NCBI RefSeq assembly: GCF_003334815.1 | Contig: NZ_QOWO01000112.1 | Reading direction: 5' to 3' (one strand) | DNA: 959 nt | From: Escherichia coli | GTDB taxonomy: Bacteria; Pseudomonadota; Gammaproteobacteria; Enterobacterales; Enterobacteriaceae | Shown here: positions 1 to 959 of the stretch, one piece after another | Numbering within the stretch: the stretch's first letter is position 1 | Layout of the letters: each line of letters starts with the position of its first letter | Program-made: the position numbers and the translations under genes | The notes under the pieces: model-generated | Databases searched by the model: none | The model's input: only the letters and a program-made list of their open reading frames with translations | Told to the model about the DNA's origin: nothing

Positions 1-93
1 TGACCGCAGCGGCGAAGCGTACCCTTGCATCCCTGCCAGCCCGGCTAAGATGGAGGCACGGCACAGCCCGCACACGACACGGCGGCCACATAA

Positions 94-126
94 CTGAAAA
101 ACCACAAGGCCATGCCCTGCATGGCC
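94..126 (-). terminator. Second hairpin with T-rich tail: possible backup terminator or RNA 3'-end structure (tentative)
   Basis: Seen in sequence: plus-strand GGCCATG (108..114) / CCCTG loop / CATGGCC (120..126) form a perfect 7-bp stem. On the minus strand it is followed by TTGTGGTTTTTCAG (complement of 94..107). The T-run is separated from the stem by GTGG, so it is weaker than a canonical terminator. No U-tract follows it on the plus strand (GGGTAAAGCGG). Confidence 0.35.
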
Positions 127-181
127 GGGTAAAGCGGAGCCGGCGGCGACGTCCTTTGTGCTCTGTCCGGGGACCGGCAGG

Positions 182-205
182 AAAAAGGCGGGGATTTACC
201 CCGCC
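182..205 (-). terminator. Rho-independent (intrinsic) transcription terminator for the minus-strand CDS
   Basis: Seen in sequence: plus-strand GGCGGGG (187..193) / ATTTA loop (194..198) / CCCCGCC (199..205) form a perfect 7-bp stem with 6 of 7 G:C pairs. On the minus strand the hairpin is followed immediately by TTTTT (complement of A-run 182..186). It starts 7 nt downstream of the TGA stop. On the plus strand the hairpin is followed by AGTGTCATCATTTCC, which is not a clean U-tract, so it is mainly unidirectional. Confidence 0.72.
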
Positions 206-212
206 AGTGTCA

Positions 213-959
213 TCATTTCCGGATTTTTGCCAGGGCATCCGCCATGCTGCGGATTTCGTTCCGGGCTTCCCGGACCACCTCCCGCAGAACACCACGGTCA
301 AACCAGCGGCGGGGCGGTTCATCCGGTATACGCAGCACATCCCAGGCCAGCCAACTGGACAGGATATGTTCAATACAATCGCTGACCAGATACATTTCCA
401 CCGCCGAAAAACGTGCGCCCCGGTTCAGGATGGCGTCGAGCACCACGGGCAGGTTTTCGTCGTCCTCATCGAGCCAGCAGGGGTGATCGCTCTCCTTCAC
501 GACCAGGCGAAAGCGGCGCGTCTGGCGGGTCAGTAACGTCTGACCGGTGGTGGTCAGCGCCGCCCGGATACGCCGCGTATCTTCTGCCACCTGGTAACTG
601 ACACAGCGTACTGCATCGCGTACCGCATCAAGAACTGCCCTGATTTCGTCCTCTGCCAGCCACTCACCGGCATACGGGAAAGACACCTGCGTTCCGTCTG
701 CCGGAAGTACCGGCAGCGACTGCCACTGACTGCCGGACAGTACAAGTTCCGCCCCGGTTCCGGTCAGTTTGTGAATGGCGGAGGCCAGGAGCGGCGGCAG
801 TGCGCCGCCGTGACGGTTGATAAGTAACGTCGCCAGCCGGGGCGCATCCAGCAGAACATAAATGCTGATCCAGCCCGGATGGTTCGGGTTCCGCTGGTCA
901 ACATCCGTCTCTTCCGGCCAGCCCTGCGCCAGCAGCAGGTTGCGGGCGTGACGACAAAT
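213..959 (-). CDS. Hypothetical protein of unknown family, C-terminal 248 aa; 5' end of the gene lies beyond the window edge
   Basis: Seen in sequence: the minus-strand frame is open without any stop from 959 down to TGA at 215..213 (248 codons; an open run this long is improbable by chance even at this GC content). Codon first positions are G-enriched and codons are typical enterobacterial (CTG, GCG, CCG, CAG, GAA, GAT, CGT, CGC). The translation is protein-like (...[29 protein letters not shown]...[17 protein letters not shown]...[33 protein letters not shown]...[25 protein letters not shown]), and an intrinsic terminator follows 7 nt after the stop. The GTG at 686..684 used by the ORF track is preceded by only a weak SD-like GGAA and the frame and codon pattern continue unchanged upstream, so the true start is probably outside the window. 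Product family not recognised. Confidence 0.8.

Follow-up and report, generated by a model that had tools for sequence, protein, structure and literature searches.

An Escherichia coli plasmid window with few stop codons at its left end very probably carries the promoter-distal half of a class 2 single-stranded DNA promoter upstream of klcA

Hairpins that serve as promoters in single-stranded plasmid DNA have been described by several groups. Wen et al. (NAR 2025, PMC12672017) reported that the hairpins located 5' of klcA and ardA are class 2 ssDNA promoters and used 5' RACE on fresh transconjugants to map where transcription starts. In pESBL and F, transcription occurred from single-stranded DNA in new transconjugants and was silent when the DNA was double-stranded (PMC12672017). 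Fraikin et al. (bioRxiv 10.64898/2026.01.09.698686) named the F copy ssp2, which controls yfgB, and described that the end of the ssp2 stem stalls complementary-strand synthesis until the stall is resolved by UvrD. The same element was found independently by a third group and named Frpo3, with a GC content of 68.6% (10.1101/2025.04.03.647016), and Samuel et al. listed a candidate termed Frpo' 4 in their Supplementary Table 2 (Nature 2024, PMC11541004). Class 2, ssp2, Frpo3 and the Frpo' 4 family are names for the same published element. The class 1 ssDNA promoters comprise Frpo/ssiD of F (Masai & Arai 1997) and ssi1-3 of ColIb-P9.

In our study we analyzed a stretch of 959 nt of E. coli DNA (the window), which matches several E. 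coli plasmids, e.g. pE2863-1, with 100% identity. Matches were found in 3693 of the 5426 complete E. coli genomes, at 6670 places on plasmids and 83 on chromosomes. The window is leading region of an IncI1-type conjugative E. coli plasmid. On the window's minus strand the gene order in pE2863-1 reads DUF1281, methylase, DUF1380, a yffB-like gene of 258 aa, a spacer of 417 nt, an antirestriction gene, ssb, psiB, psiA and ardA, followed by nikA/nikB. The right half of this spacer corresponds to window 1-212; the spacer separates the yffB-like gene from a klcA/ardB-type gene whose ATG is located 206 nt left of window position 1 (L001 5795 in pE2863-1). The protein encoded there belongs to the Pfam family Antirestrict (PF03230, KlcA/ArdB type, E=3e-26). 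For the 258-aa yffB-like protein the Pfam search gave nothing significant, and no NCBIfam family was assigned to either flanking protein. A scan for tRNA and tmRNA found none in the window. The plasmid ssb is annotated as frameshifted (pseudogene) in pE2863-1 (L001 3418-3944). Within the spacer, window 1-156 is very probably the promoter-distal half of a non-coding element of ~355 nt that is homologous to the published class 2 ssDNA promoter and would share its mechanism. The features of the window are as follows.

1-68, plus strand: 3' (non-template) arm of the class 2/ssp2 hairpin, seen as inverted repeat, in the minimum free energy (MFE) fold and in the consensus structure with covariation.
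25-30, plus strand: -35-like hexamer TTGCAT on the non-template arm (putative box).
46-51, plus strand: -10-like hexamer TAAGAT (putative box), likewise on the non-template arm and separated from TTGCAT by 15 nt.
69-156, plus strand: 3' flank of the repeated element, common to the klcA- and ardA-upstream copies in the alignment.
108-126, no strand assigned: small conserved hairpin GGCCATGCCCTGCATGGCC from the terminator scan, with a putative function only.
187-205, minus strand: intrinsic-terminator-like hairpin GGCGGGGTAAATCCCCGCC followed by TTTTT, just past the yffB-like stop, from the terminator scan.
213-959, minus strand: 3' part of the yffB-like coding sequence (258 aa), with its stop at 215-213 and its start past the right edge, from open reading frame and annotation.

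The comparison with the copies studied in F and pESBL revealed clear sequence homology. The spacer shares 97.1% identity with the region upstream of yfgB in F, 95.4% with the region upstream of klcA in pESBL and 82% with Frpo' 4, and the gene order of pE2863-1, from the yffB-like gene through the element to yfgB/klcA, is shared by both F and pESBL. Moreover, the ssp2-specific primer of Fraikin et al. matches window 358-380 (minus strand) exactly, as does their primer 'yffB up F' at 452-471 (minus strand), and these exact matches tie the window directly to the published ssp2 locus. A second copy of the element lies directly upstream of ardA in pE2863-1 (L002 26217-26570; 94.4% identical over 355 nt), and window 1-156 shows 92-94% identity to the ardA-upstream copies. 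Since the homology between the klcA and ardA copies ends at window ~156, the right boundary of the element is placed there; window 157-212 belongs with the 3' end of the yffB-like gene. As described for class 2, the element sits in the leading region, immediately upstream of an antirestriction gene, with the transferred strand as template according to gene orientation, and it forms a long stable stem-loop in that strand. Altogether, nothing material differs from class 2/ssp2: identity amounts to 95-97% across the whole spacer, the flanking genes are alike, a second copy precedes ardA and the transferred strand contains a long GC-rich hairpin. The differences consist of a few substitutions and 1-nt indels, and the window holds just the 3' arm and the 3' flank. 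The klcA-upstream element is already known, and the window represents one more plasmid's copy of it.

Folding of the spacer's plus strand gave a long, imperfect hairpin (MFE -106.5 kcal/mol, z = -4.9), whereas the minus strand folds less well (-95.1 kcal/mol). Window 1-68 pairs with a 5' arm at L001 5834-5895, 105-166 nt left of the window. A repeat search with a minimum of 40 nt returned nothing, and the underlying 32-nt inverted repeat (L001 5832-5863 and 6039-6070) appeared only with a shorter seed. Homologues were gathered from species-representative genomes by a degenerate core pattern, and 20 distinct sequences were aligned, which originate from IncI1 and IncF plasmids, Klebsiella, Enterobacter, Entomohabitans, Erwinia dacicola and a shorter subfamily from Pantoea, Erwinia and Rahnella. 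The RNAalifold consensus of these 20 sequences contains 44 pairs. Standard pairs occupy 95.7% of the cells, compared with 31-41% when the partners are slid. Changes on both sides were observed at 17 pairs (3-6 in the slid controls; 0/500 shuffles) and in 63 cells (4-19 in the controls), a pattern that by itself does not distinguish a DNA fold from an RNA fold of the same strand. Wobble pairs are distributed asymmetrically, with 42 G:T cells and 7 A:C cells, and this excess of G:T identifies the window's plus strand as the folding strand. The plus strand is the template strand of the leading-region genes, and the gene orientation relative to nikA/oriT points to it as the transferred strand. This strand call agrees with the orientation of the sequences given by Samuel et al.

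The apical domain of the hairpin (L001 5886-6021, which ends in window 1-21) is 94.9% conserved among the close members though it is weakly paired. Its plus strand is rich in G (60 G and 33 C), with eight GGG runs and no CCC run. A canonical G-quadruplex in the apical domain was considered and rejected, as a motif of four G tracts with loops of up to 12 nt occurs solely in the 5' arm, where 11 of the 12 close members and one of the eight members of the short subfamily (L011) have it; the idea is retained as speculation only.

Two hexamers of the 3' arm resemble promoter boxes. From their sequence, TTGCAT and TAAGAT would be the -35 and -10 boxes of the non-template strand. The CTTG at window 24-27 is kept in 19 of the 20 aligned members and reads CTTT in L012. 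Variants of the hexamer such as TTGCAA and TTGTCT are accompanied by matching changes in the 5' arm. In the double-stranded form the copy on the coding strand reads GTGCAT and TTG is absent, in agreement with a promoter formed only by the folded single strand. A scan of the window for double-stranded sigma-70 promoters found no site on either strand. In the -10-like hexamer the T, the A and the final T of TAnnnT are invariant in 20/20 sequences, and TAAGAT faces ATAAAA on the 5' arm, where AAG opposite AAA leaves a mismatch bubble of 3 nt. The distance between the hexamers, which is short for sigma-70, is 15 nt in all but one variant, and the intervening sequence varies with compensation on the other arm. 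That exception is a K. pneumoniae-type variant found in K. pneumoniae ATCC 13883 and in contigs of gut MAGs (L007, L008, L009, L024). It has TTGCAA with a compensating change in the 5' arm, and between the boxes its 3' arm is 5 nt longer and its 5' arm 4 nt shorter, so that 20 nt separate the two boxes in the non-template arm. ATAAAA on the 5' arm, and with it the 3-nt bubble, is found in the klcA copies and in the ardA copy of pESBL, whereas the 5' arm of the ardA copy in pE2863-1 reads ATCTTA, a perfect complement of TAAGAT without a bubble. The 20-nt variant and this bubble-free copy indicate that neither the spacing nor the -10 mismatch is strictly kept. With these boxes, transcription would start near L001 5844 and the leader would comprise ~50 nt. 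By analogy with ssp2, the site of the stall that is relieved by UvrD may correspond to about window 68-90.

The following mechanism is proposed for the locus. During conjugation the window's plus strand, as judged from where nikA lies and how the genes are oriented, would enter the recipient single-stranded. The single-stranded element would then fold into the long imperfect hairpin, whose stem would restore a promoter in duplex form. With TTGCAT and TAAGAT, the 3' arm (window 1-68) would supply the non-template strand, and the 5' arm outside the window would serve as template. Host RNA polymerase could transcribe leftwards into klcA ahead of complementary-strand synthesis, and once the DNA has been turned double-stranded the hairpin and the promoter would be lost. 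Homology, synteny, fold, covariation, folding strand and the lack of conservation of the open reading frame (ORF) discussed below come from this analysis; the induction in vivo, the starts mapped by 5' RACE and the block resolved by UvrD come from the literature on the pESBL and F copies.

An earlier sequence-only reading had noticed that stop codons are rare on the minus strand at the left end of the window and suggested that the next minus-strand gene, or its 5' leader, could begin there, with an ATG at 30-28. The scarcity is as described. The minus strand of 1-195 contains a single stop (TAG at 47-45), two of its frames are free of stops, and the frame of the ATG is open from 195 to 1 and closed upstream by TAA at 198-196. 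The caveat given at the time, that this might just reflect high GC, turned out to be correct. Segment 1-180 has 66% GC with just 22 T on the plus strand; the minus strand is poor in A because the plus strand has so few T, and stop codons are scarce there because every stop codon needs an A. In 5000 shuffles of 1-180 the minus strand had on average 3.8 stops, compared with one observed (P(<=1) = 0.068, rounded P = 0.07), and the scarcity is not more than chance for this composition. The single TAG at 47-45 is the complement of CTA at the -10-like site, and the ATG is the reverse complement of CAT in the -35-like TTGCAT.

A small protein-coding gene that starts at this ATG and runs off the left edge would nevertheless agree with the open frame, which in pE2863-1 measures 89 codons from the ATG and 114 from an upstream GTG. 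An early in-frame stop left of position 1, which the sequence-only reading had named as a sign against a gene, is absent: the frame stays open for 79 further codons in pE2863-1, runs across the annotated start of klcA and terminates at L001 5761. It is the comparison of homologues, and not the early-stop check, that refutes the gene. The ORF from the ATG comprises 89 aa in plasmid F, but 71 aa in pESBL, Escherichia sp. (L017) and Enterobacter, where the tail is frameshifted, 58 aa in the ardA-upstream copy, 54 aa in K. grimontii, where the frame differs from residue 5 on, and just 3 aa in Entomohabitans and Erwinia dacicola. No distant member has the ATG, nor does the K. pneumoniae-type variant, which reads TTGCAA, and the alignment of homologues contains 1-base indels inside the frame. 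A conserved start codon and reading frame were not found among the homologues. Besides, AGGG abuts the ATG with zero spacing, the frame runs into the klcA start, and the substitutions in the spacer compensate between the arms and are not codon-like. No gene is annotated in the spacer in 39 of the 40 plasmids listed, among more than 5000 matching records, and none in RefSeq. We therefore give virtually no credence to a gene at this position. The stop-poor frames are an artefact of a GC-rich, A-poor structural DNA element and not coding sequence. The left end of the window is indeed tied to the next minus-strand gene, as the non-template arm of the klcA promoter hairpin and neither as a gene start nor as an mRNA leader.

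Two non-coding alternatives were also weighed. The conserved hairpin could act as RNA, i.e. as a structured klcA leader, an antisense RNA or a small RNA, and not as folded DNA. Covariation alone is compatible with either, terminator-like hairpins are present in the window, and the Rfam scan gave a weak match to AS-pc01 at 108-209 (plus strand). However, all Rfam matches were sub-threshold, and the best of them scored far below the gathering score (AS-pc01 20.8 bits vs 79; Pseudomon-groES 18.4 vs 50). A klcA leader would consist of minus-strand sequence, but the 42 G:T against 7 A:C cells and the better fold both favour the plus strand, and neither strand has a double-stranded sigma-70 promoter. 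Moreover, published work documents activity from single-stranded DNA in transconjugants (PMC12672017) and shows that DNA synthesis is physically stalled at the ssp2 stem (10.64898/2026.01.09.698686), and a function as RNA is accordingly very unlikely. The remaining alternative, a mere GC-rich spacer that carries terminators of the upstream operon and has no promoter function, draws on the two terminator-like hairpins of the minus strand (205-187 and 126-108). The hairpin at 187-205 is specific to the klcA-side copy, as it is kept in F and pESBL and absent from the ardA copies. Downstream of the one at 108-126 the minus strand has a T-rich run, and this hairpin may be a terminator of the upstream operon; in its homologue in Erwinia dacicola GGCCATG/CATGGCC is replaced by GGCCCG/CGGGCC, with two compensatory pair changes. 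Yet conservation extends over ~355 nt and is seen in more than 5000 plasmids and in different genera, a duplicate of the element precedes a second anti-restriction gene next to a different upstream gene, and with ~60 bp per arm the covarying hairpin greatly exceeds the size of a terminator, all of which makes a plain spacer extremely unlikely. The folded-DNA promoter of class 2 is the reading that we retain.

Similar to class 1, this class 2 element is a leading-region hairpin on the transferred strand that would recreate -35 and -10 boxes and drive early ('zygotic') genes. The apical region of class 1 is A/T-rich, whereas the element of the window has 66-69% GC, and class 1 is followed by ssb/psiB, whereas klcA/ardA follow here. 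No similarity of the spacer to ssiD/Frpo of F, ssi1-3 of ColIb-P9 or the ssb-upstream region was detectable. Three class 1 Frpo/ssi copies with 84-99% identity to ssi1-3 of ColIb-P9 occur elsewhere in pE2863-1 (L002 21086-21416, 27430-27756 and 30810-31137), upstream of ssb, of a hypothetical gene downstream of ardA and of a DUF4942 gene. The spacer upstream of the DUF1281-methylase operon (L001 9676-10092) folds as a hairpin as well (z = -5.4). Three class 1 copies, two class 2 copies and the methylase-operon element add up to six hairpin promoters in pE2863-1, as has been reported for pESBL.

The DUF1281-methylase element is probably the published 'class 3'/ssp3 of Wen et al., who described class 3 as unrelated (PMC12672017). 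Its motif is found in the two reference plasmids, pESBL and F, at the following positions.

L004 3279-3302: motif of the DUF1281-methylase element.
L005 4664-4687: motif of the DUF1281-methylase element.

The element shares with class 2 a colinear series of blocks, namely GCCGTGCC, CCGGGCG, GAAGCCGCAG, GACCGGGTGAG, CTTGCAT, a gap of 15 nt, TAACGT and GGCACGGC. The profile of the 20-sequence family matches it at about E=5e-10 and near full length in pE2863-1, pESBL and F, and 34 of the 42 consensus pairs form in it. A profile built from class 2 members alone reaches merely E=0.03 on this element, BLAST barely sees it, and with ~183 nt versus 247 nt for the element of the window it is shorter and only ~55% identical. 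The members of the short subfamily from Pantoea, Rahnella and Erwinia (L011-L015, L021, L022) measure ~193 nt versus 247 nt and are without part of the apical domain. They keep the clamps, TAnnnT, CTTG (CTTT in L012) and the blocks AAGCC(G/A)CA and ACGGG(T/C)GA, and two of them are identical to the low-certainty Frpo* 1 and Frpo* 3 of Samuel et al. These short forms bridge class 2 and the DUF1281-methylase element, which suggests a single wider family. On the strength of sequence comparison we tentatively propose, at somewhat less than even confidence, that class 2 is the long form of a wider leading-region hairpin-promoter family which would include the ~190-nt forms of Pantoea, Erwinia and Rahnella as well as the DUF1281-methylase element. 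The common core of this family comprises a GCCGTG/CACGGC clamp, a CGGGC/GCCCGG clamp around the mismatched TAnnnT, CTTG at a distance of 15 nt upstream, and two invariant blocks, AAGCCGCA and ACGGGTGA. As a speculation, the G-rich apical domain, present in the long form only, might underlie, rather than the stem alone, the replication roadblock activity, which is present in ssp2 and missing from ssp3.

Copies of the element are also present in contigs and MAGs that are filed under Gram-positive taxa, i.e. Streptomyces morookaense (L006), Collinsella (L009-L010), Oscillospiraceae/Oscillibacter (L007-L008) and Lachnospiraceae (L018). A wide host range that includes Streptomyces, Collinsella and Clostridia was rejected, as these copies are 88-98% identical to E. 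coli plasmids. Their most likely explanation is contamination or the mis-binning of plasmid contigs from enterobacteria.

The role of the hairpin as a promoter has already been published (2024-2026), and the covariation test together with the strand evidence adds modest extra support for the published structure. For a genome scan, the analysis removes a false gene candidate from the leading region. IncF and IncI plasmids are major carriers of antibiotic resistance, and the element analyzed here is one switch that lets these plasmids express anti-restriction genes within minutes of entry into a new cell.
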